Virus record (IMG/VR): IMGVR_UViG_3300037307_000895
Length of the DNA: 36,056 nt
Origin: an uncultured virus (IMG/VR IMGVR_UViG_3300037307_000895)
Lineage: Duplodnaviria; Heunggongvirae; Uroviricota; Caudoviricetes
Strand: one strand, 5' to 3'
Shown here one piece after another: positions 9,066 through 36,056 of this stretch. The translations under genes were made by a program, and so were the position numbers. Under the pieces are notes generated by a model that did no database searches, was not told the DNA's origin, and saw only the letters and a list, made by a program, of their open reading frames with translations. Position 1 is the stretch's first letter. Each line of letters starts with the position of its first letter.

Positions 9066-9073
9066 ATATAATT

Positions 9074-10583: not shown

Positions 10584-10592
10584 ATTTAAATT

Positions 10593-12406: not shown

Positions 12407-12414
12407 AAAATAAA

Positions 12415-14970: not shown

Positions 14971-14979
14971 AATATATAT

Positions 14980-15555
14980 ATGAAAATATCTGAAATATTA
15001 TTGAAATATAATACCGATAAAAATAAAGGGTCTCTAAGAATGGGACCTGGAACAGGACATTTTTATGGTGAGACTTATGATAGAATTTTCGAAGAGTTTG
15101 ATAAAGACTCTGAGGTTTGTGTTATAGAAATAGGAGTAGAAAAAGGAGGAAGTCTATTGGCGTGGAAAGAATATTTTAAAAACGGATTTATAGTGGGTAT
15201 TGATATATCAGATAATAGAATAGATGAATATAAGAGCGATGAAGTTTATTACATATTAAGTGATATAAAAGATCCATCTTTAAAGGATAATTCACTAATA
15301 AAGAATAATCAATTTGATATTATAATAGATGATGGGAGCCATTATTTCAATGATGTTTTTTATTTAATTTCAAACTATTTGGATAAATTAAAAATTAATG
15401 GTTATTTGATAGTAGAAGACTGTCAACAACCTGAAATGTGGTTATCGAATATTTCACCGATAATTACTAATGATTATATAATAACCACACAAGATCTTCG
15501 TAATATAAATGGTAATTATGATGACTATTTAATAATAATTAAAAAAATAAGATGA
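14980..15555 (+). CDS. Class I SAM-dependent methyltransferase, probable sugar O-methyltransferase
   Basis: TDK...H.Y, EIGVEKGGS, GIDI, DIIIDDGSH, VED. Confidence 0.8.
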   Translation: MKISEILLKYNTDKNKGSLRMGPGTGHFYGETYDRIFEEFDKDSEVCVIEIGVEKGGSLLAWKEYFKNGFIVGIDISDNRIDEYKSDEVYYILSDIKDPSLKDNSLIKNNQFDIIIDDGSHYFNDVFYLISNYLDKLKINGYLIVEDCQQPEMWLSNISPIITNDYIITTQDLRNINGNYDDYLIIIKKIR

Positions 15556-16295
15556 TATCCAAGAGTATAGTATTCATCACTACAACATTACATACCAAAT
15601 GGTTGGGTTATCAATCAAAAATAATTAAGAATTTTTTCCCCGATTCTTTACATATAGTAATAGATGGAAGAACAAATTGGCCAAATTCATGGTTTTGGTG
15701 GATAAATGAAGTTAAAAAAACAAATTGTGACTATTATATTCACATCGATGAAGATTTCTTTATAACAAATCCTGATGAGATATGGAAAGTTATTGAAAAA
15801 ATGGAGAATGATAATGTTAATATTATGGGTTGTCCGGATGGATACCACCAATATAGAGGAGCTAATCCAATCGCAATAAATTCCTTTTTACTGTTCGGTC
15901 GAGTTGATGATTTAAGAAAAGTCGATTTTAATGGGATTATGTTTTCGTATACTAATATTGGGTGGGTTAATAATATGGGGTTATCTTTTAAAGAGTCTTA
16001 TAAAAAAGATTATAATTATCGATTTGATATAAATGGTGGATCCGATTTTAATTTTGAACAAGAACCTTATTATGCATTTATGTGGAAAATGAAAGAAATG
16101 GGTTTAAAATTTGATTACTTATATCCACATTTCGATAATAAATTTAAATCAACTAACCCAAGAATAGAAGAAGATTCTAAAGATATCGGAATACATATGT
16201 GGTATGTTAGAGATTGGTTTAGAAATAATATAGTTCACGGAATGAGTAATATCGAAAGGTATTCTCTACTTGAAAAGGAGATAGAAAATATATGA
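15552..16295 (+). CDS. Putative GT-A fold glycosyltransferase
   Basis: YYIHIDEDFF (DxD), C-terminal HMWY.R, position inside the GT cluster. Confidence 0.55.
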   Translation: MISKSIVFITTTLHTKWLGYQSKIIKNFFPDSLHIVIDGRTNWPNSWFWWINEVKKTNCDYYIHIDEDFFITNPDEIWKVIEKMENDNVNIMGCPDGYHQYRGANPIAINSFLLFGRVDDLRKVDFNGIMFSYTNIGWVNNMGLSFKESYKKDYNYRFDINGGSDFNFEQEPYYAFMWKMKEMGLKFDYLYPHFDNKFKSTNPRIEEDSKDIGIHMWYVRDWFRNNIVHGMSNIERYSLLEKEIENI

Positions 16296-17068
16296 TAATT
16301 ACTAAATTACAAGGAGGTTTAGGAAACCAACTATTTCAATGGGCTACCACTATGTCTTATGCTCAGGATAATAATATTGATTATAAATTTGAAATATCTT
16401 TTTATTTTACACAAAATTTGAGATATCCAAAATTAAATGAATTTCCAAATATAAAATTCAATATAGCCAATGAATATGATATACAAAATAAAACCATGAT
16501 ATTTCTCAAAGATGAATTTACATATAAAGAATTTAAAAAAATAAATCAAAATGAGGTCTTATTTTTAAATGGATATTGGCAAAGTGAAAAATATTTTATT
16601 AACAATAGGGACATCATATTAAATGACTTATCAAATTCACAATTGACATCAAAGTTAATAAACACACCTTTCTTAGATTATGATGTAACATCAATGCATA
16701 TAAGAAGAACTGATTACCTTGACTCAGGCGGATATCATCCGGTACAAACATTAGAATATTATAAAAATGCGGTGGATGAAATCGGTGATTATGATTATTT
16801 ATTTATTTTTTCAGATGATATTAATTGGTGTAAAAATAATTTAAAATTTAAAAATATGATATTCATGAGCGGATTTAGTGATATTGAAGATTTATATTTG
16901 ATGAGTATGTGTAAAAATAATATAATAGCCAATAGCTCATTTAGTTGGTGGGGAGCATGGATGAACCAGAACATTAATAAAAAAATTATTTCACCCTCTA
17001 AATGGTTTGGAGATCATGTTACTATAAATCAATCTGATATAATTCCAGAAAATTGGATTAAATTATAA
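16292..17068 (+). CDS. GT11 alpha-1,2-fucosyltransferase
   Basis: GGLGNQLFQ, GYWQSEKYF, HIRRTDY, FSDDINW, ANSSFSWWGAW, P..W. Confidence 0.93.
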   Translation: MIITKLQGGLGNQLFQWATTMSYAQDNNIDYKFEISFYFTQNLRYPKLNEFPNIKFNIANEYDIQNKTMIFLKDEFTYKEFKKINQNEVLFLNGYWQSEKYFINNRDIILNDLSNSQLTSKLINTPFLDYDVTSMHIRRTDYLDSGGYHPVQTLEYYKNAVDEIGDYDYLFIFSDDINWCKNNLKFKNMIFMSGFSDIEDLYLMSMCKNNIIANSSFSWWGAWMNQNINKKIISPSKWFGDHVTINQSDIIPENWIKL

Positions 17069-22615: not shown

Positions 22616-22865
22616 ACGCAAACTTAGATGTAAAGGGGGTATGAAAGTTACTGACTCATTAGAGTCACCTTGGGTAGATATCTTTATTCAAGATAAATGG
22701 TATTGTGTGGATTTTGATTACGACGATAAATTGACTTCTTTTTGTGAATACTCTGCTATAGATGAAACAGGAAATATTCGGAAATTAACTAAGGCTGAAT
22801 ATAATGTGGTGTTTTATAGTGTAGAAGAAATTAGGAATTTTTTAATTGATGAAGTAATATCATAA
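22605..22865 (+). CDS. Small hypothetical protein
   Basis: 86 aa, overlaps the upstream stop; ends IRNFLIDEVIS. Confidence 0.65.
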   Translation: MKIRRKLRCKGGMKVTDSLESPWVDIFIQDKWYCVDFDYDDKLTSFCEYSAIDETGNIRKLTKAEYNVVFYSVEEIRNFLIDEVIS

Positions 22866-23405
22866 TTTGAATTCTATCTTATCTCCATTTGTCATTGAGT
22901 AAACAATCTTATCTATATCTGAAAATGTTTTTTTCCATTTATCAGATAGATATTTATCAGCTTCACCCTTTTTAACATAGGATATAGTCATATGTGGTTT
23001 ATAATCAGGGTAGTCGGTGGTATGTGGAAGTTTGGTTAATTCTTTATTTATTTCAAATAGTATAGGTGAAACAACATTAAATTTAACTACACTATATTCT
23101 TCATTATCAAACTTGCCTATTCCATCAATTTGAATATCTATGGTTCTATTTCTAAATTTATCAATTACATTTGCGACATCTTCTTTACTTACATTATTGT
23201 GCAGCCCATATAATAGTGTAACATGAGGACTTGTTTCTAAACCACGTGATTTGTCATCAGGTAAGTATATGTCTTCTTTCTTAATCATTGATGTTATATC
23301 TTTCCAATTAGATATTCTTGGGTATATCATAACACACCCATAGTCATATAAGTCACCTCTTTTTTCCACTATAAATTCATTAAATTTCCTAATCAAGATA
23401 CTCAT
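22860..23405 (-). CDS. 2H phosphoesterase (T4 57B/Acb1-like)
   Basis: Two HxT motifs, PHVTLLYG and YKPHMTISY; N-terminal leader MSILIRKFNEFIVE. Confidence 0.85.
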   Translation of the reverse strand: MSILIRKFNEFIVEKRGDLYDYGCVMIYPRISNWKDITSMIKKEDIYLPDDKSRGLETSPHVTLLYGLHNNVSKEDVANVIDKFRNRTIDIQIDGIGKFDNEEYSVVKFNVVSPILFEINKELTKLPHTTDYPDYKPHMTISYVKKGEADKYLSDKWKKTFSDIDKIVYSMTNGDKIEFKL

Positions 23406-23929
23406 TTATCTTTTATTTCTTTTCCTTTAAAAGGTTTTATATTTTTTAAATTCCAATTCGGTTGAAATTTTTTCTTCTTTTTCTCAAAATCTTGATAAGA
23501 TTCTATTCCTGTATCAATTGGATTTTTGATGTAATGAATATTGGCACCTTGTTTATTCATATCACTTATTTTATCACCAATATCAGTGCCCTTTGAAATT
23601 TTTCTAACTTTATTTAATTGATCAACAGAGTGTTGTTGGGGCAAAGCTCCTTCATTTTGGGAAACTAATATCACCGTACCATCTTCTTCCTCAATTATTT
23701 CTGCAATATAATTATCATCAATAATATTCACAACCTCACCCAATAGTTCCTTTACGTTTTGAATATATTTGTTGCCACCCTCATCAATTAAGAAGTCGTA
23801 ATCACCAAAAGGATCGGCGTTAATTATGTGAACAATTTTATTTTGAACAGTTCCTTCTGAACCTCTAATAAACTGTTCCCTCTTAAGAGGATCTTCTGAT
23901 TTTTTTCTTATACTAATTATCTTTTTCAT
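23402..23929 (-). CDS. Hypothetical protein
   Basis: 175 aa, 4-nt ATGA overlaps with both neighbours. Confidence 0.7.
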   Translation of the reverse strand: MKKIISIRKKSEDPLKREQFIRGSEGTVQNKIVHIINADPFGDYDFLIDEGGNKYIQNVKELLGEVVNIIDDNYIAEIIEEEDGTVILVSQNEGALPQQHSVDQLNKVRKISKGTDIGDKISDMNKQGANIHYIKNPIDTGIESYQDFEKKKKKFQPNWNLKNIKPFKGKEIKDK

Positions 23930-24291
23930 TTTTTTGATTTATAAGATTTTCCTACAATACTATTGGTATCAGATAATATTTTCTCTACTTTAAATCCAGC
24001 TTTTATACAGTGGTTCCAAAGATTATCAAAAAGTTCTTTTTCAATTTTAATATTTTCTGTATTATTGCCTGTATTTTTGTCAAATACTTTAATGAGGCTG
24101 TCATTAGAAATGCATCTAACTGAAATTACATATTTATCTGTTTGAAATACAATAGCTTTGAGTTTGAAAATACCCATTCTCAATTTAATTGTTTTATTTT
24201 TAGCAAATACATTGTCTTTAGTAATTTCTACTATAGACTTTTCAGATTTCTTAAACGGATTCCACTTTTCAAATTTCATTATATGTTCCAT
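23926..24291 (-). CDS. Hypothetical protein with leader MEHIMKFEKW
   Basis: 121 aa, first gene after the TAATATATAG motif. Confidence 0.7.
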   Translation of the reverse strand: MEHIMKFEKWNPFKKSEKSIVEITKDNVFAKNKTIKLRMGIFKLKAIVFQTDKYVISVRCISNDSLIKVFDKNTGNNTENIKIEKELFDNLWNHCIKAGFKVEKILSDTNSIVGKSYKSKK

Positions 24292-24308
24292 AATTATATT
24301 GAATTTAT

Positions 24309-24318
24309 CTATATATTA
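24309..24318 (-). promoter_or_regulatory. Putative late promoter (TAATATATAG)
   Basis: Exact copy of the motif at 35729. Confidence 0.6.
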
Positions 24319-24357
24319 AATGGTGGAAATAAATATTCGTAATGCAAAGATACAAAT

Positions 24358-24388
24358 AAAAAATGAGAGTTAAAAATAACTCTCATTT
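24358..24388 (-). terminator. Intrinsic terminator after nrdB
   Basis: 12-bp perfect stem AAATGAGAGTTA / TAACTCTCATTT with 4-nt loop. Confidence 0.8.
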
Positions 24389-24412
24389 ATCATTAATTAT
24401 AAGTCTATTATG

Positions 24413-25369
24413 TTAAAAATCATCAGAAAGATTACCAAAGTCAATATTTCTATCTTGTACCTTTTGATATTCACCAACTCTCTTCTCGAAGAAGTTAGTT
24501 TTTCCTTGAAGTGAAATCATATCCATGAAGTCAAAAGGATTTGAAACATTATAAACCTTTTCACATCCTAGTTCATTTAACCAAAAATCAGCTACATATT
24601 CAATATATTGCATCATTAAGTTGTTGTTCATACCAATAAGTGAAACCGGTAATGATTCAGTGATAAATTCTCTTTCAATTTCAACTGCTGAACAAATAAT
24701 TTCTTTAATCCTTTCTTCAGGAAGCTTGTTCTTAATATAATTATTGTATAGTAAACAAGCGAATCTACAGTGTAAACCTTCGTCCCTTGAAATTAACTCA
24801 TTGGAGAAACTCAATCCAGGCATTAGTCCTCTTTTCTTTAGCCAAAAAATTGAACAGAATGATCCTGAGAAAAATATACCTTCGACAGCAGCAAAGGCAA
24901 TCAGCCTTTCTGCGAATGATTCAGAGGATATCCATTTCAAGGCCCAATCAGCTTTCTTCTTAATTGAATCGTAATTATCAATAGCGTGAAATAATCTATT
25001 TCTTTCTTCTTCATCTTTGATGTAAGTATCAATTAAAAGAGAATATGTCTCAGAGTGAATATTCTCAATAGCTACCTGAAATCCATAGAAGCTTCTTGCT
25101 TCAGGATACTGAACTTCTTTTAAGAAGTTCTCTGCTAGATTTTCATTAACAATCCCATCTGATGCAGCAAAGAATGCTAATACCATTTTGATAAAATGCT
25201 TCTCATCATCATTTAATTTTTCTTCCCAGTCTGTTAAATCTTGTGCTAAATCAATCTCCTCTGCAGTCCAAAAAGAGTGCTCTGCAGTTTTATACATTTC
25301 CCAAATGTCATGATATTTTAAGGGAAACATCACAAATCTGTCTTTGTTTTCTTGTAGTATATGTTCCAT
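24413..25369 (-). CDS. nrdB: Class Ia ribonucleotide reductase small subunit
   Basis: [56 protein letters not shown]. Confidence 0.97.
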
Positions 25370-25384
25370 ATTAGTATTTTAATG

Positions 25385-25411
25385 TTATATAGTGTAAAAT
25401 AAAAAATGTTT
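25385..25411 (-). promoter_or_regulatory. Bipartite motif AAAC-N17-ATATAA
   Basis: Upstream of nrdB. Confidence 0.6.
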
Positions 25412-25424
25412 ATATAGAAGAGAC

Positions 25425-26171
25425 TTAAAAATCTTTTCTCCAAATAGTAGCAAAGTTTTGATTATTATAAATATTTACCATCCCACATTTTTCTAAAATC
25501 CTAAATACTTTATTTATATCAACATTAAAATGCATCGGCATTATTTCTTCTTCGCCAGCCAAATCAACGATTGATATTAACAATCCTCCTTTATTTAAAT
25601 ATTTACATAATTGATAAAAATAATCTTCTTGTTGTTGAGGTAGTAAATGTTCTATAACAGCGTCAGTGAAAATTATATCATATTTTTCTGGTAAAGAAAA
25701 ATGGTCCTGAGGAATTATTATTGTCTTGATATCTATTTTATATTTATTGAATCTCCATTGAGCAAAATCAGAAATGTACCCTTTTATATCAACATAAGTA
25801 ACATCTTTGCCAGTATATTCTTTTACAATTTCACAAAATACTCCTAATCCTCCTCCAAATTCCATAAAATTTTTACCACTATGTTCTTTAATTAGTCGTA
25901 AAGCTGTTGGTAAGAATAAATTTACTTTATTGGAAACTCTAAATTTATGCCAATTATTATTTAATAAATCATAAATGTAATTCTTTGAATTTTCATAGAA
26001 ATCTTCTTTAGTATCTCTTTGGTTAAAATCTTCTGCATTTATAGATTGGTGATTCACCATTTTAAAATGAATTTCATCGATAGATAATCCAGAAAATTCT
26101 GAAAAATCTTTGATAATAGAACTATTTGGAAATTCTTCTAATATCGGTATTTGTATACTATAATCTATCAT
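25425..26171 (-). CDS. Class I SAM-dependent methyltransferase
   Basis: MEFGGGLG, YVDI, YDIIFTDAVIEHL, LNKGG. Confidence 0.85.
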   Translation of the reverse strand: MIDYSIQIPILEEFPNSSIIKDFSEFSGLSIDEIHFKMVNHQSINAEDFNQRDTKEDFYENSKNYIYDLLNNNWHKFRVSNKVNLFLPTALRLIKEHSGKNFMEFGGGLGVFCEIVKEYTGKDVTYVDIKGYISDFAQWRFNKYKIDIKTIIIPQDHFSLPEKYDIIFTDAVIEHLLPQQQEDYFYQLCKYLNKGGLLISIVDLAGEEEIMPMHFNVDINKVFRILEKCGMVNIYNNQNFATIWRKDF

Positions 26172-26176
26172 GAAAA

Positions 26177-26203
26177 TAATATTATTTAAAAAGTCAAAAG
26201 TTT
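26177..26203 (-). promoter_or_regulatory. Bipartite motif AAAC-N17-ATATTA
   Basis: Ends 5 nt before ATG 26171. Confidence 0.45.
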
Positions 26204-26215
26204 GCTTTATAAAAA

Positions 26216-26225
26216 TAATATATAT
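26216..26225 (+). promoter_or_regulatory. Putative late promoter (TAATATATAT)
   Basis: Directly upstream of the lysin and neck genes. Confidence 0.5.
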
Positions 26226-26228
26226 TAT

Positions 26229-26831
26229 ATGAATTTAAATAAATTAAGAGGTATAATACCTGATAATGTTTTACAACAAATACCATTTATAATGGAGACA
26301 TTTAAAATAAATACTCCATTAAGATTAGCACACTTTTTATCACAGTGTATGCATGAATCCGGAAATTTTAAATTTTTAGTTGAGAATTTAAATTATTCAG
26401 AAAATGGATTATTATCCACATTTCCTAAATATTTTGTTAGTGGAGGAGCTGCTCAATATGCAAGAAAACCCGAAAAGATTGCTAATAGGGTTTATGCAAA
26501 CAGAATGGGAAATGGAAATGAATGGAGTGGTGATGGGTGGAAATATAGAGGAAGGGGATATATTCAATTAACTGGAAAGTCCAACTATGCTCTTTTTGCA
26601 CAGGCAATTAGAGAAGATGTTGTGACATATCCAGATTTAGTGGCCACAAAATATCCATTAGCTTCAGCAGCTTGGTTTTTTCACAGAAACGCATTGAATA
26701 CAATTGCTGATAAAGGACCATCAGTAGATGTTATAACAGCAGTAACGAGGAGAATTAATGGGGGAACCAAAGGATTAAGTGATAGGATATCAAAATTTAA
26801 TCAAATATATCCTTTGTTACTAAAGCCTTAA
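26229..26831 (+). CDS. GH19 chitinase-like endolysin
   Basis: AHFLSQCMHES, ENLNYS, ANRVYANRMGN, YRGRGYIQLTGKSNY, RRINGG..GL.DR; ATG 26229 preferred over TTG 26202. Confidence 0.92.
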   Translation: MNLNKLRGIIPDNVLQQIPFIMETFKINTPLRLAHFLSQCMHESGNFKFLVENLNYSENGLLSTFPKYFVSGGAAQYARKPEKIANRVYANRMGNGNEWSGDGWKYRGRGYIQLTGKSNYALFAQAIREDVVTYPDLVATKYPLASAAWFFHRNALNTIADKGPSVDVITAVTRRINGGTKGLSDRISKFNQIYPLLLKP

Positions 26832-26847
26832 AAATTAATCAATTTAC

Positions 26848-27606
26848 ATGGCGTCATATGCGATAGAAGAATTAATAGATTTTGTACAAAATGAAATAAC
26901 AGTTGGGTGTTCTTTACCTAAGACTTTACCAGATACTGAGATAAGAAGATTTGCTGAAACGAGAGCCACTAAATGGTTTTATCAAAATTATCAATATGCA
27001 GTATCAAAAGTGTATTATTTTGTTGATAAAGCAGCTTTTTCTACTGAAGAATTTACAATGTATAGTTATATAACTCTTCCTTGTGAAATTCAATCAGTTA
27101 CCTACATATATCAAGTTAGAGGAGAATCTTTGATGCAGTTAGGTATAAATACTCCTAATTTATCTGTAAACCTTGGTGTTACTAACCAACCATATCTGTC
27201 ATCATATGTTACAACCATTGGTGAATTGGGTGTTTATAAAACTTTAATTGACTCATTATCTGATATGATGAATCAATTAAATAAATATACTGTTAAATAT
27301 CACTATAATCAGTTAATGAATAGGTTAAATATTTTAACTAATATTAAATATGATTTAATTTTAGAGACATATGCAAATATACCTGCTGAAAATTTATATA
27401 CCGATCCTTATTTCTTAAAATATGTTACTGGGTGGGCTAAACAACAAACTGGAATGTTATTAGGTAGATATGATTTTACACTTCCTGGTGGAGTTAAGTT
27501 TAATTCAGCGGACCTTGTATCTCAAGGCAAAGAGGAAATGAAAGAAGTTGAAGAAGAAATCAAGAACATGAGTCAGAGTGCGTGGTTTTACATGGTTAAG
27601 AAGTAG
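26848..27606 (+). CDS. T4 gp13-like neck protein
   Basis: C-terminal KY...AK...G..LG....LPGGV.FN...L...G.EE...EEE pattern. Confidence 0.78.
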   Translation: MASYAIEELIDFVQNEITVGCSLPKTLPDTEIRRFAETRATKWFYQNYQYAVSKVYYFVDKAAFSTEEFTMYSYITLPCEIQSVTYIYQVRGESLMQLGINTPNLSVNLGVTNQPYLSSYVTTIGELGVYKTLIDSLSDMMNQLNKYTVKYHYNQLMNRLNILTNIKYDLILETYANIPAENLYTDPYFLKYVTGWAKQQTGMLLGRYDFTLPGGVKFNSADLVSQGKEEMKEVEEEIKNMSQSAWFYMVKK

Positions 27607-27635
27607 GTTACCATTTTTAAAATATGTTCACTCCT

Positions 27636-27661
27636 AAACAAATAATTCTCATTTAATATAA
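27636..27661 (+). promoter_or_regulatory. Bipartite motif AAAC-N16-ATATAA
   Basis: Ends 5 nt before ATG 27667. Confidence 0.5.
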
Positions 27662-27666
27662 AATAA

Positions 27667-28533
27667 ATGAGAGCCCGATTAGTTATTGATTGTTTCACTT
27701 TTTTTAATGAACTCAAAATGTTAGAGTTCAGATTATCCGAGATGTATGATTTTGTAGATTACTTCGTTTTGGTGGAGTCTACTAAAACATTTAGTGATAA
27801 AGATAAACCTTTATACTATCAGAATAATAAACACCTCTTTGAAAAATGGAGGGATAAAATACTTCATGTTATTGTTGATGATATTGATATGCCTAAAGTA
27901 AAAGATCCTGATGACTTTGAGATAATAGGGAATCAATCCAACGATGAAAATTGGACTAGAGAAAGATTTCAAAGAAATTCTTGTATGAAAGCTCTTAAAA
28001 AACTTGATCTGAGAAATGATGATGTTATTTTAATCAATGATGTCGATGAAATTATAAACCAAAATGTTCTTGATTATTTTAAAAGAATGGGTGTCTCTGG
28101 TTTATATGTTTTAGCATTGGATGCTTATTTATATTCTCTTAGATATAAAGTAAACGATACATATCCTGCTAGAATATGTACAGGTGCTAGAGCAATTGAT
28201 TGGGAAAGTTTGTTGGAAATAGGAACGCCAGATAAAGTCAGAAATACATTTTTACATAATAAAGAATATTATCCTAATGGAGCTAAAAATGATAGACTAT
28301 ATGCGTGGATAATTCCAAACTGTGGTTGGCATTTTTCATACTTTGGAACTAAAGAAGATATAATAAAAAAGATAAATAGTTACTCTCACCAAGAATTAAA
28401 TAATGATGTAACCATAAATAACTTAGATGATTTCATCAATAGTGGTAAATATATTTCTTCTGAGTATACTACTTCAATAATTGAGATTGGAGATAATAAT
28501 AACTTACCAAATAATTATAGAATATTATTGTGA
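27667..28533 (+). CDS. GT17 family glycosyltransferase, second paralogue
   Basis: DCFTFFNEL.ML..RL, VEST.TF, RERFQRN, NDVDEI, GWHFSYF, SYSHQE. Confidence 0.88.
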   Translation: MRARLVIDCFTFFNELKMLEFRLSEMYDFVDYFVLVESTKTFSDKDKPLYYQNNKHLFEKWRDKILHVIVDDIDMPKVKDPDDFEIIGNQSNDENWTRERFQRNSCMKALKKLDLRNDDVILINDVDEIINQNVLDYFKRMGVSGLYVLALDAYLYSLRYKVNDTYPARICTGARAIDWESLLEIGTPDKVRNTFLHNKEYYPNGAKNDRLYAWIIPNCGWHFSYFGTKEDIIKKINSYSHQELNNDVTINNLDDFINSGKYISSEYTTSIIEIGDNNNLPNNYRILL

Positions 28534-28539
28534 TATTTT

Positions 28540-28549
28540 TAATATATAA
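28540..28549 (+). promoter_or_regulatory. Putative late promoter (TAATATATAA)
   Basis: 3 nt before ATG 28553. Confidence 0.5.
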
Positions 28550-28552
28550 TTA

Positions 28553-29632
28553 ATGAAATATATTAAAGAATATCATGTTTTCATAGACGACGACACTTTT
28601 GATTTGATATATTCTGATATAAAAGATATTATGTCGGATATTAATCTTGAATTAAAAGAAGAGCATGATGATATTCAAAAAAAGAGAATAAACTTGGGAT
28701 TGCGCCCTTTCCCATCAAGTCCACAACTTTATATTAATATAAATACTTTATCTTTAAATTTATCAATTAATTTTAGTCAGAAATACAATGAAGATATTGT
28801 TTCTATGAATTGCATAGGAGATGTCACAAAAGCTGAAAATAAAATTAAAAGAATGATTAAGTTTATATCAGCGAAGTATGGTATAAGTCTATCTTATGGA
28901 ATATTCTTTGGTCATCAAATATTAATTTCCAAACCAGAAATAGTTGATAGAATTAAATTCTTATATAATTTCGAAAGAAAAGAAGAACAAGAATTTTTTC
29001 TATATTACGAAACAATTGATTTAGAATTGGATTCTAAATATAATATGATATCAGAAGAAATTGTGAGTGAATATGATATTAAATTTATATCAATGGATGG
29101 TGATGTTGGACTAAAGGGGTTTAGATTAGTGATTCATTCAAAGGTTGATAAAATATCATATGTATATGATTTTCAAAGAGGCAATTATTTAGAAAATGAT
29201 AATATTGAATATCTTGTTGATATTTATAAATCAAAATTCATATATAGTAGTGATGTTAAGGCGGTTAGTATTAAATCAAAAATGTTAGACTCCGGAGCAA
29301 ATTTAATAGACAGTTATAAATTTACTTGTAATATACATGATGATAAATGTATAGAATTTTATGAGTTATTTATGGATAACTTTATTAAAAATTCTGGAAT
29401 GTCAAAATCAAAACTATTATTAGATTTATTGAACAAATTATTAGAAAACACTTTTTTTGAAATAGAAGAGTATGATATTGAAAATGGTGAAATTGTTTTA
29501 TATATAAATGATAAAATAATTAAAATATCAGTAAATAATGATTTAAAAATTAAAGTTGATGGAATAAAAGTAGAAGAGAACGATGTGATAGAAGAAATAT
29601 ATTTAAAATTAACTGATAAAAATGCCATATAA
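28553..29632 (+). CDS. Hypothetical protein with leader MKYIKEY..F
   Basis: 359 aa ORF. Confidence 0.75.
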   Translation: MKYIKEYHVFIDDDTFDLIYSDIKDIMSDINLELKEEHDDIQKKRINLGLRPFPSSPQLYININTLSLNLSINFSQKYNEDIVSMNCIGDVTKAENKIKRMIKFISAKYGISLSYGIFFGHQILISKPEIVDRIKFLYNFERKEEQEFFLYYETIDLELDSKYNMISEEIVSEYDIKFISMDGDVGLKGFRLVIHSKVDKISYVYDFQRGNYLENDNIEYLVDIYKSKFIYSSDVKAVSIKSKMLDSGANLIDSYKFTCNIHDDKCIEFYELFMDNFIKNSGMSKSKLLLDLLNKLLENTFFEIEEYDIENGEIVLYINDKIIKISVNNDLKIKVDGIKVEENDVIEEIYLKLTDKNAI

Positions 29633-30113
29633 ATATATAAAATTATTTGAGGAATTTGTGAAAACTAACAATTACACATATGAGTTTAAAGAAGCTGATA
29701 TAAATTATCAGGTCTCCTTTGAAGAATTAGAAGAAGGAAAATTTAATATTACCTATGGTGTTTTGGATTCAGAAGACTCCGTGAAGTACACAACCTTAAA
29801 TAAGAATAATGTGTATAGGGTTGTAAATAATGTTGTTAATTGCATCAAGGATTTTATTATCTCAAATCCTCAGGTTAGTTATATAGAATTTTTTGGAGTA
29901 CCAGATAAAAAAAGTAAAACTGATTGGATACTTAAATTGTTTGGTAAAAATATGTATTTGGACTATATGGTTGTTTTATTATATGATATTGTTACAAAAA
30001 GAGTTATAGATACCAAAAGAACACGAATATTCACAAGATGGGCCGAAAGAGAATCTAAAAAGATGAATTGGAATATTAAAAAATTAGGTAATAAAATAAT
30101 ACTTACTCGATAA
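29622..30113 (+). CDS. Hypothetical protein with leader MPYKYIKLFEEF
   Basis: 163 aa ORF overlapping the upstream stop. Confidence 0.75.
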   Translation: MPYKYIKLFEEFVKTNNYTYEFKEADINYQVSFEELEEGKFNITYGVLDSEDSVKYTTLNKNNVYRVVNNVVNCIKDFIISNPQVSYIEFFGVPDKKSKTDWILKLFGKNMYLDYMVVLLYDIVTKRVIDTKRTRIFTRWAERESKKMNWNIKKLGNKIILTR

Positions 30114-30471
30114 TTTTATCAATTTTTTCCTCTCTCATTTTTCTATACGCCACACCATCATAATCAATATAAGCTCCTCTAACATAAGTTATTCCATTTT
30201 GCGAACTAAATCCATATAATACAAAACATTTTGGAAAAGGACTTGTTTTTACATCCTCTAATCTTAATGTCATGCATGAAACTGATTGTGATAATATTTT
30301 CTCTTCCTTTAAATAATAATTAACGAATATCGGCTGGTCAACTAAATATCTAACAGAGGACAATTCAGATAAGTATCTGATATATCTATCTTCTTCTCCG
30401 GCAAATCTTTGTTGTAGGATTTTATATCTTTCTTCTACATCTATAGGTAATTCGTGTAATATTTTATTCAT
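30103..30471 (-). CDS. Hypothetical protein ending MREEKIDKIIE
   Basis: Start moved to ATG 30471 (MNKILHELP), 10 nt after the guaC stop, which removes the overlap. Confidence 0.7.
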   Translation of the reverse strand: MNKILHELPIDVEERYKILQQRFAGEEDRYIRYLSELSSVRYLVDQPIFVNYYLKEEKILSQSVSCMTLRLEDVKTSPFPKCFVLYGFSSQNGITYVRGAYIDYDGVAYRKMREEKIDKIIE

Positions 30472-30481
30472 TTTAATTATA

Positions 30482-31426
30482 TTATTTTGTATGTGCAATC
30501 CACTTAACAGAATTAAAACAAGATAAATCTTTCCCCCCACCATAAGATATAGCACTTTGTAAACACTCTTTTAAATATTGATATCCATCTAAAATCGACC
30601 TATCTTTATATTCAACTAATATTTTTTTACCTTCAATTCGATTTGTCTTATTAGACTGATGTGCTGAGGCGCTTCCCCAAAACTCTTTAAAATATTTACC
30701 ATCAATAAAAATTTTGTGTCCAGGTGAATCATCGTATCCTGATAACATGCCACCTATCATTACCATAGTCGCCCCCATTACTAAACTTTTAGCTATGTCG
30801 CCAGGCTCTTTTATACCACCATCTGCAATAATAGGAACTTTAGAGACCGATGAACATTCTAATATAACGGAAGCTTGACAATTTCTACTACCAAATCCGG
30901 TCGCTGGGTAAGTAGTACAGGCGCTACCAGGACCAATTCCAACCTTAATAGCATCTGCTCCCCAATTTTGTAGGTCATAAACTGCGTCTTTTGTTGAAAC
31001 ATTTCCTGCTATAATAAAAGAACTAAACTTAGATTTTAAATAGGTTATCATTCTTTCCATAGAAATTGCATGGCCATGTGCTATGTCTATTGTTATAAAA
31101 TCTGGTATAATATTTTCTTTTAGCAATTGTTCTAACAAATCATAAGAATCTTGATTCACACCAACCGATATAGATACCAACAAATTTTCTTTTTTCATTT
31201 CTCTACAAAATTCAAGTGTGTTTCCAAATCTATGCATTATGTAAAAAAATCCATTTTTAGCCAAGTTTTTAGCTATATTTATATCTATTACTGCTTCCAT
31301 GTTCGCTGGAACAACAGGCATTTTAAATTCATGTTTACCAAAAGTTAGAGATGTTTCAATCTCTGATCTAGAATCAACTAAGCATTTTTTTGGCACTAAA
31401 TTAATATCATTAAAATCAAATTTCAT
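30482..31426 (-). CDS. guaC: GMP reductase (GuaC, short Bacillus-type)
   Basis: PVVPANM, ITIDIAHGH, IAGNV, KVGIGPGSACTT, IADGGI, GSAS, LQSAISY.GG; no CBS domains; start at MKFDFNDI. Confidence 0.9.
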   Translation of the reverse strand: MKFDFNDINLVPKKCLVDSRSEIETSLTFGKHEFKMPVVPANMEAVIDINIAKNLAKNGFFYIMHRFGNTLEFCREMKKENLLVSISVGVNQDSYDLLEQLLKENIIPDFITIDIAHGHAISMERMITYLKSKFSSFIIAGNVSTKDAVYDLQNWGADAIKVGIGPGSACTTYPATGFGSRNCQASVILECSSVSKVPIIADGGIKEPGDIAKSLVMGATMVMIGGMLSGYDDSPGHKIFIDGKYFKEFWGSASAHQSNKTNRIEGKKILVEYKDRSILDGYQYLKECLQSAISYGGGKDLSCFNSVKWIAHTK

Positions 31427-31439
31427 ATAATTAATTTTT

Positions 31440-31742
31440 TTAATAAAATGAATATTTATCATGTTCAATTATGCAATAAATTGAACATGGATAAAGCTCA
31501 ACATGAGTATCATGTTCATCCACCACAAATCGGCATGTCCCATCAATAATTTCTTCATTCATAATTCTAATGGTCATGTTATTTAATCCCCTTAATATAA
31601 TATAAATCGGATCTTCTTTTTCTATTCTAATAGATTCTTTTTTACCAACTAACTTACCATTATTATCCTCGAAATATGACTTTTCTATAACTCTTTTTAA
31701 TTCTTTAGATTTGTCATATTCTATTTTCATCTCGTACTTCAT
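31440..31742 (-). CDS. Hypothetical protein
   Basis: 100 aa ORF within the minus-strand operon. Confidence 0.65.
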   Translation of the reverse strand: MKYEMKIEYDKSKELKRVIEKSYFEDNNGKLVGKKESIRIEKEDPIYIILRGLNNMTIRIMNEEIIDGTCRFVVDEHDTHVELYPCSIYCIIEHDKYSFY

Positions 31743-31749
31743 ATATTGA

Positions 31750-32745
31750 TTATTTTTTCCAGAATGAGTATATTCCCTTTTCTATCTCATAATTGCCCCA
31801 ATGAAACCTATCTCTGTTTGGTTGCTTTTGGGCCCAATCCCACATTTGTTTTAATCCATCATGTAATGATGTTTTATCATAATACCCTAAAAGTCGCATT
31901 GATTTTATCCAAGTTGGATGAGCGTCTTTAACTTCGTGTCTGGATTCTTTATAGATAACATCCCCTCCATTTATTACTTCTCTTAAAATTCTATTGGCCT
32001 CATTTATGCTATAATGAGTTGTGCCGCCTAGATTAATAATTTCTTTAGAACAATTTTCTTGAACGGCCGCTTTCCAAAGTGGTTCTAAGCAATCGTCAAT
32101 GAAGCTGAAAGCCCGGGTTTGTTCACCATCACCAAATATAGTCATTGGTTCATTATTCATATATTGATACATCCATATACCTAAGACATTCCTATATCTA
32201 TCCCATATATTTTGATTAACCCCATAAACATTATGTGGTCTAATTATACACCAATCTAAACCATGTTGTTCACCAGCTACTTTTATATCCATTTCACAAG
32301 CATATTTAGCGATTCCATATGGGTCAACTGGTTCGGGAATATGTAATTCATCAAATGGTGGGGTTCCGTGTCCGTAAACAGCCATGGTAGATGTGAAAAC
32401 TAATCTTTTTACATCATATTTTATACAATTATTTATTACGTTTGCGGTGGCTACTAAATTATTTTGATAATTAAATTTTCTAATAAATGGGGATAATCCT
32501 TCTGCCGCATATGCTGCTAAATGATATACATAAGTTGGTAAGTTTTCTTGAAATATTATATCAAGATTTCCTGAATTTATATCCATGTGATAGAATTTAA
32601 CCTCTTTAGGAACATTCTCAATGTATCCACCACTCAAATCATCAACACCTATTACCTCATATTCAGTTTGATTTTTTATTATCCACTCAGCTAATCTCGA
32701 TCCTATTAATCCGGCTACACCTGTAATCAAAATAGTTTTTCTCAT
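31750..32745 (-). CDS. NAD-dependent NDP-sugar epimerase/dehydratase (4-epimerase-like)
   Basis: TGVAGLIG, DDLSGG, HLAA, YGIAK, RPHNVYG, GDGEQTRAF. Confidence 0.92.
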   Translation of the reverse strand: MRKTILITGVAGLIGSRLAEWIIKNQTEYEVIGVDDLSGGYIENVPKEVKFYHMDINSGNLDIIFQENLPTYVYHLAAYAAEGLSPFIRKFNYQNNLVATANVINNCIKYDVKRLVFTSTMAVYGHGTPPFDELHIPEPVDPYGIAKYACEMDIKVAGEQHGLDWCIIRPHNVYGVNQNIWDRYRNVLGIWMYQYMNNEPMTIFGDGEQTRAFSFIDDCLEPLWKAAVQENCSKEIINLGGTTHYSINEANRILREVINGGDVIYKESRHEVKDAHPTWIKSMRLLGYYDKTSLHDGLKQMWDWAQKQPNRDRFHWGNYEIEKGIYSFWKK

Positions 32746-32770
32746 TTATTTTAGATTATTTTTACTTTAT

Positions 32771-32796
32771 TTATATCATCAAATATCAATATGTTT
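32771..32796 (-). promoter_or_regulatory. Bipartite motif AAAC-N16-ATATAA
   Basis: Upstream of the epimerase-guaC operon. Confidence 0.55.
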
Positions 32797-33817
32797 ATAT
32801 TACTTGCTTGAGCTTATTAAATACCTTAAATTGTTCATCATTTAATATCTTTGGTATTTTAATATTTACTTTTATAAGTAAGTCCCCATATCCACCTACA
32901 GTCCCATTGTGACTAAGCATAGGTATTCCTTTTTGTTTAATATTAAATACTTTTCCACTATCACACCCATTTGGAATTTTTAATTTGACCTTACCTGTTG
33001 GAGAATTTATTTCTATTTCTGTTCCGAGAACTGCATCTGGTATACTTATCCACTCTTCGTAAACTAAATTAACACCTTCTCTTCTAAATTTAGGATCTGG
33101 TATGTCTTCTATTACAATGTATAAGTCACCATTGATGCCGTTTTTAATTTGGTTCCCGTATCCTGCCATAGTCATCTGCATTCCATTTATTGCACCAGGT
33201 GGTATGTTGATATCAATGATTTCTTCTTTACTTTCGGTTCCAACACCATGACATTTTCCACAACGATGTTTGACAGTTGTTCCTTCACCATGACAATCAT
33301 TACACATCATAGTTTGTTGTATTCTACCGAACGGGGTTGACTGTACTATAGTTTTATGTCCGGTTCCGTTACATCCATGACAACTCACTACATCTTTTCC
33401 ACCAGTTCCATTACAAGACGCACAATGAACTTGTCTGTTATATTTTATTTTCTTTTGTGTGCCATTAATTACCTCATGAATCATCAGTGATGATTTTATT
33501 CTCAAATCTGATCCTCTTTTTTGAGGTTTTCTATTATTGAAACCGAAAGCTCCTCCAAATATATCTCCAAATTGAGAGAAGATATCATCCATATTAAATC
33601 CGCCTCTTCTATTGTCAGTAGTCCCAAAAGTATCATAATTTTTCCTTTTTTCTGGGTCAGAGAGAACTTCGTAAGCTTCGGCCGCTTCCTTAAATAAATT
33701 TTCATCACCTCCTTTGTCCGGGTGATGTTCTATTGCTTTTTTTCGGTATGCTTTTTTTATTTCATCTTGTGAGGCGGTTTTACTAACCCCCAATATATCA
33801 TAATAATTTTTACTCAT
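32795..33817 (-). CDS. dnaJ: Chaperone DnaJ (class A)
   Basis: J-domain with HPD, G/F region with DIF, four CxxCxGxG repeats, GDLY and GDLL C-terminal domains. Confidence 0.96.
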
Positions 33818-33836
33818 ATCTATTATTTATTAGTTT

Positions 33837-34523
33837 TTAGTTCCACCATTTTGTTCCTATTAAATAGTTTTCAACCAACCCTTGTTCAACATATTTTTTC
33901 ATATTCATCATATCTTGGTTTTTAATTGGACCTAGCTCTAATTCTAGATCTTTGTCATCTAAAGTAGCAGATAAACTTCCTTCAATTTTTAATCCTTCTA
34001 TTAAATAATTTGGTTTTTTACTTCTATAAAATAACCAATCATCTCCGGCCCACAATTTCAAATCGTCAGGAATTTTATCCCAGTTTTTTTTATGCACAAA
34101 AAAACAGCAAGCAAAACCAGTAGGTCTATAACCCATTGTAGTTTTACCATCTGGTAAAGGAGAAGAAAATTTAAATTCACTTATTGGTTTTTTATAGTTA
34201 TCTGTGGACATACCTACAAACCCAACATCTTCAGTAATAAAATTATCTATGTTTTTTAAATAAGACCAATCAAACCACACATCATCATTCATAAAACAAA
34301 GTTTATCAAATGTAGCCATTTCTGCTCCTTTATTCCAAGCAGGATTTATATAAGTGTTTTTACCTTCACATATATGCTTTAATTTAGGAACATGCATTTG
34401 CACAAAATTATCACTATTGTCAATCAATATTATTTCACCCACTGTTTCACAATTGGATAATTCCTGTATTGTATCGTATATTCTCTGAATTCGCATCAAA
34501 GATGGTATAATAACACTAATCAT
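33837..34523 (-). CDS. GT2-like glycosyltransferase
   Basis: ISVIIPS, IILIDN, NPAWN.G, MNDDV, WAGDDW. Confidence 0.85.
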   Translation of the reverse strand: MISVIIPSLMRIQRIYDTIQELSNCETVGEIILIDNSDNFVQMHVPKLKHICEGKNTYINPAWNKGAEMATFDKLCFMNDDVWFDWSYLKNIDNFITEDVGFVGMSTDNYKKPISEFKFSSPLPDGKTTMGYRPTGFACCFFVHKKNWDKIPDDLKLWAGDDWLFYRSKKPNYLIEGLKIEGSLSATLDDKDLELELGPIKNQDMMNMKKYVEQGLVENYLIGTKWWN

Positions 34524-34540
34524 AAGTCAAATATTTTAAT

Positions 34541-34567
34541 ATATATGTTTAAATTTGTTTTAAGTTT
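34541..34567 (-). promoter_or_regulatory. Bipartite motif AAAC-N17-ATATAT
   Basis: Upstream of the GT2-dnaJ operon. Confidence 0.5.
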
Positions 34568-34608
34568 TAATAGATATTTATTATATTTACATAAAATACA
34601 ATTGTTAA

Positions 34609-35382
34609 ATGATATACGAAAAAATATATGACTTCTGTAAAGTCAGAAATAGTGGAAATTGTTTCAGAAATGGAACAGAGCCTACACCCAGAGTTAAATT
34701 CTTGATGAACCTATTAGAAGAAGAAGGAATAGATTATGAATTAGACGAATTTGAAGAAGAAAAAGGATTAAAGAGATATAATGATTCTGAAAATAAATAT
34801 TTTAATATCATTTTAAGAGGAAATTCTAATAAAATGATAGTAGCTCATCATGATGTCAACAACGCTAATATTGATAACGCAAATGATAATTCCGCTTCTG
34901 TGATTAATTTAATTGCTACAAAAAAATTAAAACCAGAAATACATGCTGTAATTTTAGATGGTGAAGAATTTGGAGGAATTGGTTCTCATAGACTATCTAA
35001 ACAAATTAAAAATGGTGATTTTGGAGAAATAGAATGGGTATTAAACTATGAGTTAACCGGGAAAGGAGGAAAATATTTCTTCATAGGTGACTATCCAGGC
35101 CCTTTAAGTGACAAAATAAAATCACTGTTCAATTGTCCTGTAGTTAGAACCCCATTTAACGATTCAGTTATTCTAAGAAGATACGGAATAGATTCTACTG
35201 TAATAAACCCAGTTCCTCCAATGCCAAATGGAAAAAAATCTGATGTTGTATTTAGTGATGGTACTTTTCTCGACACATCAATTTTGTGGAATTGTCATTC
35301 ACCAAGAGATACTGTTGGAAGTATCTCTGTTGATGATATGAAAGAGTTTGTCGAAACAGTGGCTTTAAAAATATTAAATTAA
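34609..35382 (+). CDS. M28 family metallopeptidase
   Basis: VAHHD, ANDNSASV, DGEEFG..GS, LNYELTG, HSPRD. Confidence 0.85.
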   Translation: MIYEKIYDFCKVRNSGNCFRNGTEPTPRVKFLMNLLEEEGIDYELDEFEEEKGLKRYNDSENKYFNIILRGNSNKMIVAHHDVNNANIDNANDNSASVINLIATKKLKPEIHAVILDGEEFGGIGSHRLSKQIKNGDFGEIEWVLNYELTGKGGKYFFIGDYPGPLSDKIKSLFNCPVVRTPFNDSVILRRYGIDSTVINPVPPMPNGKKSDVVFSDGTFLDTSILWNCHSPRDTVGSISVDDMKEFVETVALKILN

Positions 35383-35383
35383 T

Positions 35384-35731
35384 ATGGATTATATAGTTTC
35401 CAACGAAACTATTAAAAGACAGATAATAGTTTCTACAAATAAAGTGGATGGTAGAATGATATACAATGGACATAAAATGGGCATTCCTGATTCATTATTG
35501 CCTATCATTCTTAGACATCATCATGAAAGGTATAATAGTACTTTTATATTCTTTGATTATAAAAAGTGGTCGGAAATATATGACATGGAAAAGATAACAC
35601 CAACTATGACTGAATGTTGGTTTAGAAATGCTGATAGCTCAAAAGGATTATTACAATCCTATGATACATTACTCAATCTAATAGAAGAAAAATTCGGCAA
35701 ATTTAAAAATATTTATATAGCTGAGAATTAA
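35384..35731 (+). CDS. Hypothetical protein
   Basis: 115 aa ORF starting 1 nt after the upstream stop. Confidence 0.65.
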   Translation: MDYIVSNETIKRQIIVSTNKVDGRMIYNGHKMGIPDSLLPIILRHHHERYNSTFIFFDYKKWSEIYDMEKITPTMTECWFRNADSSKGLLQSYDTLLNLIEEKFGKFKNIYIAEN

Positions 35732-35738
35732 TATATAG
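35729..35738 (+). promoter_or_regulatory. Putative late promoter (TAATATATAG)
   Basis: 3 nt before ATG 35742. Confidence 0.55.
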
Positions 35739-35741
35739 ATT

Positions 35742-36056
35742 ATGTCTATAATAAAGAAATATCAAACCTATATTGCGGAAAAACAAGAGTTGGTTGGTGG
35801 AAAAGCCGATGATTTAACTTTAATGGAAATCGCTAAAAAGCATCAAGGTTCTGACTCTAAATATATGTTAAATCATCTAAAATCCCAATTAGAAAAAGGA
35901 GTTAAGGTTGAAATGGAACACACTTCTGATATTTCAAAATGTAAAGAAATAGCGATGGATCATTTAACCGAAGATCCTAATTATTATGATAGACTTTCAG
36001 AAATGGAAAAAGATGCCGAAGATGTTGTAACAATACCTAAATGGAATACTTATTAA
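35742..36056 (+). CDS. DUF5661-like protein with leader MSIIKKYQTYIAE
   Basis: GVKVEMEHT...EIAMDHLTEDPNYYDRL motif. Confidence 0.75.
   Translation: MSIIKKYQTYIAEKQELVGGKADDLTLMEIAKKHQGSDSKYMLNHLKSQLEKGVKVEMEHTSDISKCKEIAMDHLTEDPNYYDRLSEMEKDAEDVVTIPKWNTY

Follow-up and report, generated by a model that had tools for sequence, protein, structure and literature searches.

Short N-terminal leaders in a huge-phage sequence resemble the capsid targeting sequence of T4 internal proteins

The internal proteins of bacteriophage T4 share nothing but their capsid targeting sequence (CTS), which is conserved and encapsidates them into the scaffolding core (PMC3012670). This CTS is a propeptide of 10–20 residues that is cut off by the protease gp21. 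The proteases of T4, phiKZ, 201phi2-1 and SPN3US all cut after Glu, and the T4 protein Alt is cut at ITE-6 and LTE-619 (PMC5694885). Proteins delivered from the T4 head include anti-restriction factors (PMC3012670; bioRxiv 10.1101/2022.04.14.488369), and IPIII is required on one E. coli strain (bioRxiv 10.1101/2022.04.14.488369). Here we describe a family of short N-terminal leaders encoded in a stretch of DNA from an uncultured virus (IMG/VR record IMGVR_UViG_3300037307_000895). This whole stretch of 36 kb, with 44 called proteins and 11,549 residues, is referred to below as the window. A sequence-only reading of it had proposed that five unrelated proteins, called cargo proteins 1–5 in this text, begin with a T4-like leader and are expressed from late promoters. 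Our comparisons make it likely that the leader is a capsid (prohead) targeting propeptide as in the T4 internal proteins. The five proteins of the window are probably carried in the virus particle, if the sequence relationships described here are a guide.

Head-directed peptides of other kinds have been described as well. In phiKZ, 201phi2-1 and SPN3US, propeptides are assumed to steer proteins into the prohead, and many head proteins are ejected into the host; about 8 of the roughly 50 head proteins of SPN3US are processed (PMC5694885). In phage P1, an N-terminal peptide of DarB, an anti-restriction protein, is sufficient to send the protein or a reporter into the capsid (PMC9024508). Our literature search found no published description of such leaders in huge phages, and the main text of Al-Shayeb et al. 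2020 contains 0 occurrences of 'internal protein' (PMC7162821).

The leader family in the window and in a relative

The neck protein of the window is 70% identical to that of the uncultured phage records LR745206 (635 kb) and LR756502 (642 kb). Its more distant kin are found in 735-kb records, Lak phages, Sphingomonas phage PAU and Chryseobacterium phages MA9V-1/2. Genomes of the LR745206/LR756502 type (>634 kb) form the 'Mahaphage' clade, whose predicted hosts are Bacteroidetes (PMC7162821). By its sequence, the window is part of a huge phage of the Bacteroidota type. It is syntenic with the 421–461 kb region of LR745206, and the genes flanking the cargo genes are 45–76% identical. We used LR745206 as the whole-proteome comparison genome for the leader, promoter and head-gene tests. 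Its open reading frames (ORFs) were called by a crude procedure (ATG start, at least 50 aa, greedy non-overlap), which gave 916 ORFs with 93% coverage.

The five N-termini are present at the claimed starts, at 23405 and 24291 on the minus strand and at 28553, 29622 and 35742 on the plus strand (sequences in Table 1). Beyond the leader the proteins are indeed unrelated, since no pair matches at E<0.1. Pfam recognizes a 2H phosphoesterase/Acb1-like domain in one of them, DUF5661 in another and nothing in the remaining three. The motif I-[KRM]-x-[FY]-x-x-[FYW], which had been drawn from these five proteins, has six matches among the 44 proteins of the window. Five of the six start at residue 4–6, and the remaining one lies in a methyltransferase, at residue 20.

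Since this motif had been defined post hoc, we retested it with a model built from the N-termini of LR745206 only, a position-specific scoring matrix (PSSM) of nine columns derived by expectation maximization. Scores of at least 10 bits were found at 114 of the 916 N-termini of LR745206 versus 33 of 169,988 internal positions, which corresponds to an approximately 100-fold N-terminal enrichment. The number of 114 leader proteins is a lower bound; several of the 33 internal matches are preceded by Met and are probably mis-called starts. The motif of the sequence-only reading occurs within the first 14 residues of 31 of the 916 proteins, versus 0–2 per internal 14-residue window at five offsets. 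Applied to the window, the PSSM placed four of the five cargo proteins on top (16.2, 12.3, 9.8 and 8.8 bits), and the fifth (35742) ranked 7th of 44 with 5.6 bits. Here, at least 8 bits were reached at 4 of 44 N-termini (308 start positions) versus 6 of 10,845 internal positions (odds ratio 24, p=1e-4). Translated in six frames, the window contains two matches to the heptad [FY]x[EQDT][FY][ILVM]xE, each at a leader N-terminus, and the leader of cargo gene 5 is one of them. Leader-like motifs of at least 10 bits were also seen in the last ~15 residues of about nine LR745206 proteins, just 5' of the stop (e.g. 83716, 103750, 372203, 125966, 615382); they may be a C-terminal version of the tag.

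A sixth window protein had been counted as leader-like because of an internal IESYQDF. This assignment could not be upheld: IESYQDF sits in a conserved C-terminal domain, and the N-terminus scores 1.9 bits. Only the C-terminal 93 residues of the protein are conserved with respect to its orthologue in LR745206. That orthologue does carry an N-terminal leader (MNHLKKFNEN).

The leaders of LR745206 follow the consensus M-K-[YH]-[LI]-[KR]-[KTS]-[FY]-[NEK]-E-[FS], and a shorter class reads M-[IL]-K-K-[FY]-x-[QE]-F-[IL]-x-E. Their information content is near zero beyond 10–11 residues. A Glu is found no more than four residues after the aromatic position in 101 of the 114 predicted leaders.

What follows the leader is highly diverse. 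After removal of the first 12 residues, the 114 leader proteins of LR745206 still fall into 106 BLAST clusters, namely 99 singletons and 7 small clusters, and about 90% of them lack a Pfam domain. The cargo domains that were found include NUDIX, Zn protease, NFACT-R, DUF5856, a fusion of 2H phosphoesterase and RNase T exonuclease, and T4-type RNA ligase 1 (Rnl1), in a list that includes some false-positive regular-expression matches such as methyltransferases. The leader genes are clustered along the genome, with 38 adjacent pairs versus 14 expected. Most of them are located far from the head module, and several flank the capsid gene. Some DUF5661 homologues have the leader and others start directly at the domain, as judged by eye. 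In terms of sequence, then, the leader is an add-on module.

Four of the five cargo proteins of the window have no BLAST homologue in LR745206, and the stretch of LR745206 that is syntenic to the window (446–458 kb) harbors 13 different leader genes. These two observations match the hypervariable pattern described for T-even internal-protein loci (PMC3012670). A megablast query with window positions 22860–30113 against phage records did not result in a match.

The leader genes had also been assigned to units headed by the motif TAATATATA. We found this motif directly in front of three of them (Table 1), and the other two are downstream genes on the same strand. Cargo gene 4 overlaps the end of cargo gene 3, so that both belong to one unit. 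As a word, TAATATATA is not over-represented in the window (6 sites vs 5.4 expected), and only its placement is informative. Another site precedes the unit of the endolysin (phrog_181, 9e-75) and neck/adaptor protein (phrog_211, 3e-14), which suggests that late genes of the window, too, are driven by this motif.

In LR745206 there are 191 TAATATATA sites on both strands, 150 of them within 100 nt upstream of a called ATG. The distances to the ATG are bimodal, with 67 of the 150 gene-proximal sites at 4–6 nt and 63 at 17–29 nt. If TAATATATA is a -10-like element, the short distance would leave many late mRNAs leaderless or nearly so. The motif is found upstream of the genes for portal, head protease, baseplate wedge subunit, head-decoration-like protein and endolysin, and also upstream of those for UvsX, Dam methylase, PhoH and Rnl1; a variant, TTATATATA, stands upstream of the capsid gene. 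The expected co-occurrence with leaders is clearly visible: TAATATATA lies at most 70 nt upstream of 42 of the 114 leader genes (37%) versus 78 of 712 other genes (11%; odds ratio 4.7, p=7e-11). The leader motif is thus both N-terminally enriched and linked to the late-type promoter motif. A second over-represented upstream word of LR745206, TATATTTG(TA), which we take to resemble the Bacteroidetes -7 promoter element, is found in the window upstream of 1572. It precedes none of the 114 leader genes versus 64 of the 712 other genes (p=9e-5). This agrees with the earlier observation that no leader gene stands under a so-called bipartite motif, although it is not certain that TATATTTG is that motif. 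Taken from these promoter motifs, the leader genes appear to be late genes that are expressed together with the head genes.

Putative scaffold repeats, predicted cleavage sites and likeness to known signals

The head genes of LR745206 are of the T4 type. Its capsid protein matches Pfam Gp23 (1.8e-26) and contains ...SINE-N at residues 42–45; at its N-terminal end it can be aligned to the beginning of the propeptide of T4 gp23. The portal belongs to phrog_213. A protein of 707 aa (198546–200669) aligns in its N-terminal part to T4 gp21 across the GE-x-x-HP and VSSR motifs. This gp21-type protease has a C-terminal extension of 500 residues with about 11 tandem 14-residue repeats, NIAYSEY[IL]AENLDK, and a very acidic stretch. 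Each of the repeats is a leader-like heptad ending in [IL]-A-E, and the C-terminal part of the protein is at the 99.8th percentile of the LR745206 proteome for [LI]-x-E density. A separate 83-aa ORF adjoining the neck gene (L001 11481-11732) has three similar repeat units. Together, the protease protein and this small ORF account for 14 of the 30 internal heptad matches in LR745206. The extension is probably a scaffold fused to the protease, and the leader would then be one copy of its repeat unit.

A Gp23 match was also obtained in PAU and MA9V-2. The PSSM of the LR745206 type found only one N-terminus of at least 8 bits in each of these phages, which use leaders of their own sequence type. 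In PAU (106051–113735), genes with the leader family MKT[LI]SKLYE[AS] lie in among those for the portal, protease, scaffold-like and capsid proteins, and the leaders match LYES, LNES and LLES sites in the four corresponding proteins. By an illustrative count, 21 of the L-[YNL]-E-[SA] matches in PAU proteins fall within the first 16 residues and 25 outside them, 10 of the latter in the four head proteins. The MA9V-2 leaders MK[TN]FFxFINE[SA] (162897, 166687, 216401, 217850) end in FINE[SA]. There, x-N-E-[SAG] is found 11 times at N-termini, and 17 of the 54 other occurrences lie in a 1207-aa protease-scaffold and 2 in the N-terminus of the capsid protein, again as an illustrative count. The leader ends thus appear to co-vary with sites in head proteins across three lineages. 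No virion proteomics for the MA9V phages came up in the literature searched.

The claimed resemblance to T4 was borne out when the model, built from megaphage leaders alone, was applied to the 265 ORFs of T4: with PSSM columns 2–8, ipI ranked 2nd, ipIII 4th and ipII 5th. Rank 3 was a spurious ORF over tRNA genes and rank 1 was gp61.1. The latter (NC_000866 18966-19130) is a 54-aa hypothetical protein that starts MKTFKEFIKE.

T4 IPII and IPIII start MKTYQEFIAE, and the window has KKYQTYIAE-K and RKFNEFIVE-K; the I-A-E at the end of the IPII/IPIII leader is also found in cargo gene 5. Both systems have an aromatic-x-Glu-aromatic-hydrophobic-x-Glu core in a short leader that is attached to unrelated, fast-evolving proteins and ends after Glu (here as predicted from the sequence). 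In both, the genes belong to the late class (here as predicted from the promoter motif), and the relative has a capsid protein of the gp23 type, a portal of the gp20 type and a protease of the gp21 type. They differ in that the commonest megaphage leader is about three residues longer at its N-terminus (MK[YH][LI] before the K-K-[FY] core), and at least 114 genes are tagged per megaphage genome versus a handful in T4. The megaphage cargo is mostly acidic and includes enzymes, and the putative megaphage scaffold consists of tandem leader-like repeats in one polypeptide with the protease. A further difference is the predicted megaphage host, Bacteroidota (PMC7162821), and the megaphage system is known here from sequence alone. 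The mechanism of the T4 CTS is textbook knowledge; the megaphage leaders share its logic, but differ in sequence class, in the match to scaffold repeats and in a ~30-fold expansion.

The propeptides of phiKZ, 201phi2-1 and SPN3US likewise belong to giant phages and are cut after Glu by gp21-related proteases (gp175/gp245). They are mostly longer than 100 residues and have the motif A/S-x-E (PMC5694885), whereas the megaphage leader has 10–14 residues, forms a shared family and has a predicted hydrophobic-x-E site. A long propeptide of the phiKZ/SPN3US type (A/S/G-x-E) was ruled out on the length of 10–14 residues, on the start of the domain at about residue 21 in the AlphaFold2 model of cargo protein 1 and on the hydrophobic or aromatic residue two before the Glu. 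P1 DarB has a 30-residue signal on one large protein and a stepwise Dar assembly pathway (PMC9024508), and no sequence likeness to the leaders was seen.

Outside the T-evens, a leader-bearing enzyme has been detected in virions of a T4-like cyanophage. In purified S-SM1 virions 41 proteins were identified, including the putative cytidylyltransferase T4-GC190 (PMC3037559, section 26), which was found with 25 counts (PMC3037559, Suppl. Table 8, where the columns of the PDF may be misread). S-SM1 T4-GC190 starts with a T4-like leader, MKKFSAFLNEA, and the long orthologues, including those of S-SM1, P-SSM4 and Syn9, start MKKFSAFL-x-E-A; short orthologues (P-HM1, P-HM2, Syn1) have no leader extension (PMC3037559, File S2). 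This amounts to one leader-bearing enzyme in the virions of one phage. Unlike the megaphage leaders, this is a single protein, and a leader is not discussed in PMC3037559.

The product of cargo gene 1 is, on sequence criteria, a member of the 2H phosphoesterase superfamily. It matches Pfam 2_5_RNA_ligase2 (1e-9) and Acb1 (9e-8), and in 63 sequences the residues H61, T63, H138 and T140 of the two H-x-[TS]-x motifs show little or no variation. An AlphaFold2 model made with this 63-sequence alignment has a mean predicted local distance difference test score (pLDDT) of 88.6, with residues 1–10 and 14–16 below 50. The domain begins at about residue 21 and its first strand comprises residues 23–29. 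Foldseek searches with the model returned 2H phosphodiesterases, including Burkholderia phage 9q2y, a poxvirus cGAMP phosphodiesterase and Acb1 7t27. A BLASTP comparison with T4 57B (Acb1) aligned only the H-x-T motif regions, and the N-terminal extension was not definable in this way; it was defined instead from the homologue set and the AlphaFold2 model. Among the best 120 of 241 homologues, 111 have a Y-G-C anchor at the start of the domain. Their N-terminal extensions are mostly 16–25 residues long, and a few homologues begin almost at the domain, i.e. are leaderless versions. A hydrophobic-x-Glu was found 3–11 residues before the domain in 99 of the 107 mutually related homologues that have the anchor and an extension of at least 12 residues, versus 317 of 1796 control windows (18%) in the same proteins.

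The LR745206 orthologue of cargo gene 1 (448257-449573, 438 aa) carries a fused exonuclease domain of the RNase T type. In T4, the Acb1-type gene 57B adjoins ipI, and nudE adjoins ipII/ipIII.

Proposed mechanism and rival explanations

From these comparisons we infer scaffold binding, cleavage, packaging and injection as follows. Late genes of the TAATATATA class would make head proteins and, along with them, varied small, mostly acidic proteins and enzymes. Each cargo protein would start with a peptide of 10–14 residues with the pattern basic-hydrophobic-basic-aromatic-x-Glu-aromatic-hydrophobic-x-Glu. This peptide resembles the repeat in the putative scaffold, the C-terminal extension of the gp21-type protease, and because of this resemblance we propose that it co-assembles with the scaffold core inside the growing prohead. 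The protease would then cut after the final Glu of the leader, as in the scaffold and the capsid-protein propeptide, and the mature cargo would remain inside the head alongside the DNA. The expected consequence, and the least certain step, would be that the cargo is delivered together with the DNA into the next host. The capsid-targeting reading accounts for the N-terminal position of the leader, its modularity, the likeness to T4, the scaffold repeats, the co-varying sites, the linkage to late promoters and the hypervariability.

Several points weigh against it. The T4 prohead cleavage consensus is Leu/Ile-x-Glu, and the commonest leader of LR745206 ends in [FY]-N-E, with an aromatic residue where the T4 site has Leu/Ile. 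Of the five leaders in the window itself, two have a clean I-x-E at their end, and the other three have imperfect sites. The leader proteins of LR745206 are acidic (median pI, the isoelectric point, of 4.9 vs 5.6; 74% below 5.5), and acidic cargo is electrostatically unfavourable inside a DNA-filled head; T4 IPII and IPIII are basic. More than 100 cargo species per genome would be about 30 times the number in T4. The T4 internal proteins rank high only after two N-terminal columns that the T4 leader lacks are dropped, and with the full nine-column PSSM they fall outside the top 20; the top match, gp61.1, is not annotated as a virion protein. The head machinery is known from the relative LR745206 (~45–76% protein identity) and not from the window phage's own genes. 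The site patterns of PAU and MA9V-2 were composed by eye after the sequences had been viewed, and the 107 counted 2H homologues are non-independent. Finally, T4-GC190 is marked as not detected in virions of Syn9, whose orthologue bears the leader, nor in those of S-PM2 (PMC3037559, Suppl. Table 8, with the same proviso about the PDF columns).

In a first rival reading, the leader is likewise a clipped prohead-targeting signal, but the tagged proteins are for the most part accessory parts of the core or scaffold that are degraded or expelled during maturation like T4 gp67/gp68 and not injected. We regard this as unlikely. Acidic small proteins fit scaffold-like roles better than that of DNA-associated cargo. 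In PAU, the leader genes lie between the portal, protease, scaffold and capsid genes, the position that the core genes 67/68 hold in T4, and several leader genes flank the capsid gene of LR745206. However, most leader genes are distant from the head module, and the 2H phosphoesterase, NUDIX and RNA ligase cargo has no obvious role in assembly. The cargo proteins are moreover unrelated and turn over quickly between relatives, which suits conflict genes better than structural parts.

Slightly less probable still is a tag for some other process that acts on late proteins, be it handling by phage chaperones (ClpB, DnaJ, GrpE), recruitment to a compartment or to a place of assembly, or degradation at a set time. 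ClpB, DnaJ and GrpE are indeed encoded in the window and its relative, basic and hydrophobic residues alternate in the leader, and a client number above 100 would suit a capsid less naturally than it would a chaperone or sorting system. The position of about 9 of the 33 internal PSSM matches at extreme C-termini suggests a recognition peptide that is flexible in its placement. Such a tag would nevertheless leave unexplained why the leader matches the proven capsid signal of T4, why leader-like repeats occur in the protease-scaffold, why leader ends and head-protein sites co-vary in three lineages, and why a hydrophobic-x-Glu is conserved directly before the 2H domain.

The shared N-terminus could also be a nucleotide-level feature, for example of translation initiation on late, AT-rich and possibly leaderless mRNAs. 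The genome has a G+C content of 27–29% (26–33% in the window), the window has no visible Shine-Dalgarno sequences, and the 67 LR745206 sites with TAATATATA 4–6 nt before the ATG mean that many late mRNAs may be leaderless. We nevertheless consider this explanation very improbable and rejected it on the codon usage and the type of replacements. In the leader columns, the usage of synonymous codons is that of the whole genome (AAA:AAG 58:20 vs 74:26, GAA:GAG 36:17 vs 72:28, TTT:TTC 40:16 vs 71:29), and replacements are conservative (L/I, K/R, F/Y). Selection therefore acts on the peptide and not on the DNA. In addition, 63% of the LR745206 leader genes have no TAATATATA within 70 nt, the highly expressed late genes for capsid, portal and endolysin have no leader, and there is no DNA repeat common to the five window leaders.

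A chance resemblance in a proteome where I, K, F, Y and N are frequent owing to AT-rich coding, or paralogues keeping an ancestral N-terminus, is scarcely credible: the first motif was fitted post hoc to five sequences and a few tandem paralogues do exist (the 7 small clusters of LR745206), but the leader is ~100-fold enriched at N-termini over internal positions of the same proteins and one enzyme family is found with and without it, and paralogy was rejected on the 106 clusters remaining after trimming and the lack of any pairwise match at E<0.1 in the window.

The capsid-targeting reading can be extended to a broader one, which we put forward tentatively and hold to be possible though somewhat doubtful. 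Phages of the Mahaphage type may devote at least an eighth of their genes to an anti-defence arsenal of more than 100 unrelated proteins, each tagged with one copy of the scaffold repeat. The tagged proteins would polymerize into the core of the prohead, be clipped where the scaffold is clipped and be injected ready for use. This arsenal would include Acb1-like cyclic-nucleotide phosphodiesterases, NUDIX hydrolases and RNA-repair ligases, and the big capsid would serve to deliver proteins as much as to hold DNA.

Should the tag function as it does in T4, proteins that are carried in the head and delivered at infection could be listed from sequence, even in uncultured phages. For more than 100 'hypothetical' genes per megaphage genome, it would indicate their role and when they act, and it would help to explain part of the oversized gene complement, perhaps also of the oversized capsid. 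Enzymes such as Acb1-like phosphodiesterases would be deployed ahead of any phage gene expression. With the leader matching the scaffold repeat, a concrete and testable loading mechanism suggests itself, and the tags could act as portable packaging signals for protein delivery by Bacteroidota phages. The cultured jumbo phages PAU and MA9V-2, which have leader families of their own, would be practical systems for packaging tests.

Feature coordinates and other genes of the window

Table 1. Putative leader-bearing (cargo) genes, the reclassified sixth protein and TAATATATA sites in the window
Feature	Coordinates	Strand	Leader	Remarks
Cargo gene 1	22860..23405	-	MSILIRKFNEFIVE	2H phosphoesterase (Acb1/LigT-like), 181 aa; leader residues 1-14 (nt 23364-23405), ends I-V-E
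Cargo gene 2	23926..24291	-	MEHIMKFEKW	121 aa; heads minus-strand unit 24291->22860; PSSM 8.8 bits at residue 3; no Pfam/PHROG match, no BLAST homologue in LR745206
Cargo gene 3	28553..29632	+	MKYIKEYHVF	359 aa; PSSM 9.8 bits; no Pfam/PHROG family match, no homologue in LR745206
Cargo gene 4	29622..30113	+	MPYKYIKLFEEF	163 aa; PSSM 16.2 bits, best leader score of the window; no Pfam/PHROG family match
Cargo gene 5	35742..36056 (runs off window)	+	MSIIKKYQTYIAE	DUF5661 (Pfam 1.6e-12); leader ends I-A-E
Sixth protein of the sequence-only reading	23402..23929	-	absent	175 aa; same unit as cargo genes 1-2; PSSM 1.9 bits
TAATATATA, late-type promoter-like motif	24310..24318	-		19 nt upstream of ATG at 24291
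TAATATATA motif	26216..26224	+		4 nt upstream of endolysin gene 26229-26831, then neck/adaptor gene 26848-27606
TAATATATA motif	28540..28548	+		4 nt upstream of ATG at 28553
TAATATATA motif	35729..35737	+		4 nt upstream of ATG at 35742

Besides the genes in Table 1, the window encodes a gp32-type single-stranded DNA-binding protein, the small subunit of ribonucleotide reductase, ClpB, DnaJ, an endolysin, a neck/adaptor protein and a sugar-modification gene island. The phage type has a chaperone set of its own, with a ClpB-type disaggregase and a full-length DnaJ in the window (2597-4693, 32795-33817) and GrpE in the relative LR745206 (L026 2780-3475).

The sugar-nucleotide/glycan island spans 12 kb (4774-17068) and comprises glycosyltransferases (GT) of the types GT2, GT6, GT11 and GT17, a DegT aminotransferase and epimerases/reductases. 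It also encodes an 851-aa fusion of an epimerase and a C-methyltransferase. Other unusual genes of the window (1-489, 30482-31468, 34609-35382) are a fragment of a microbial-type PARG at the edge, an enzyme of the GMP reductase/IMPDH family and an M28 peptidase.

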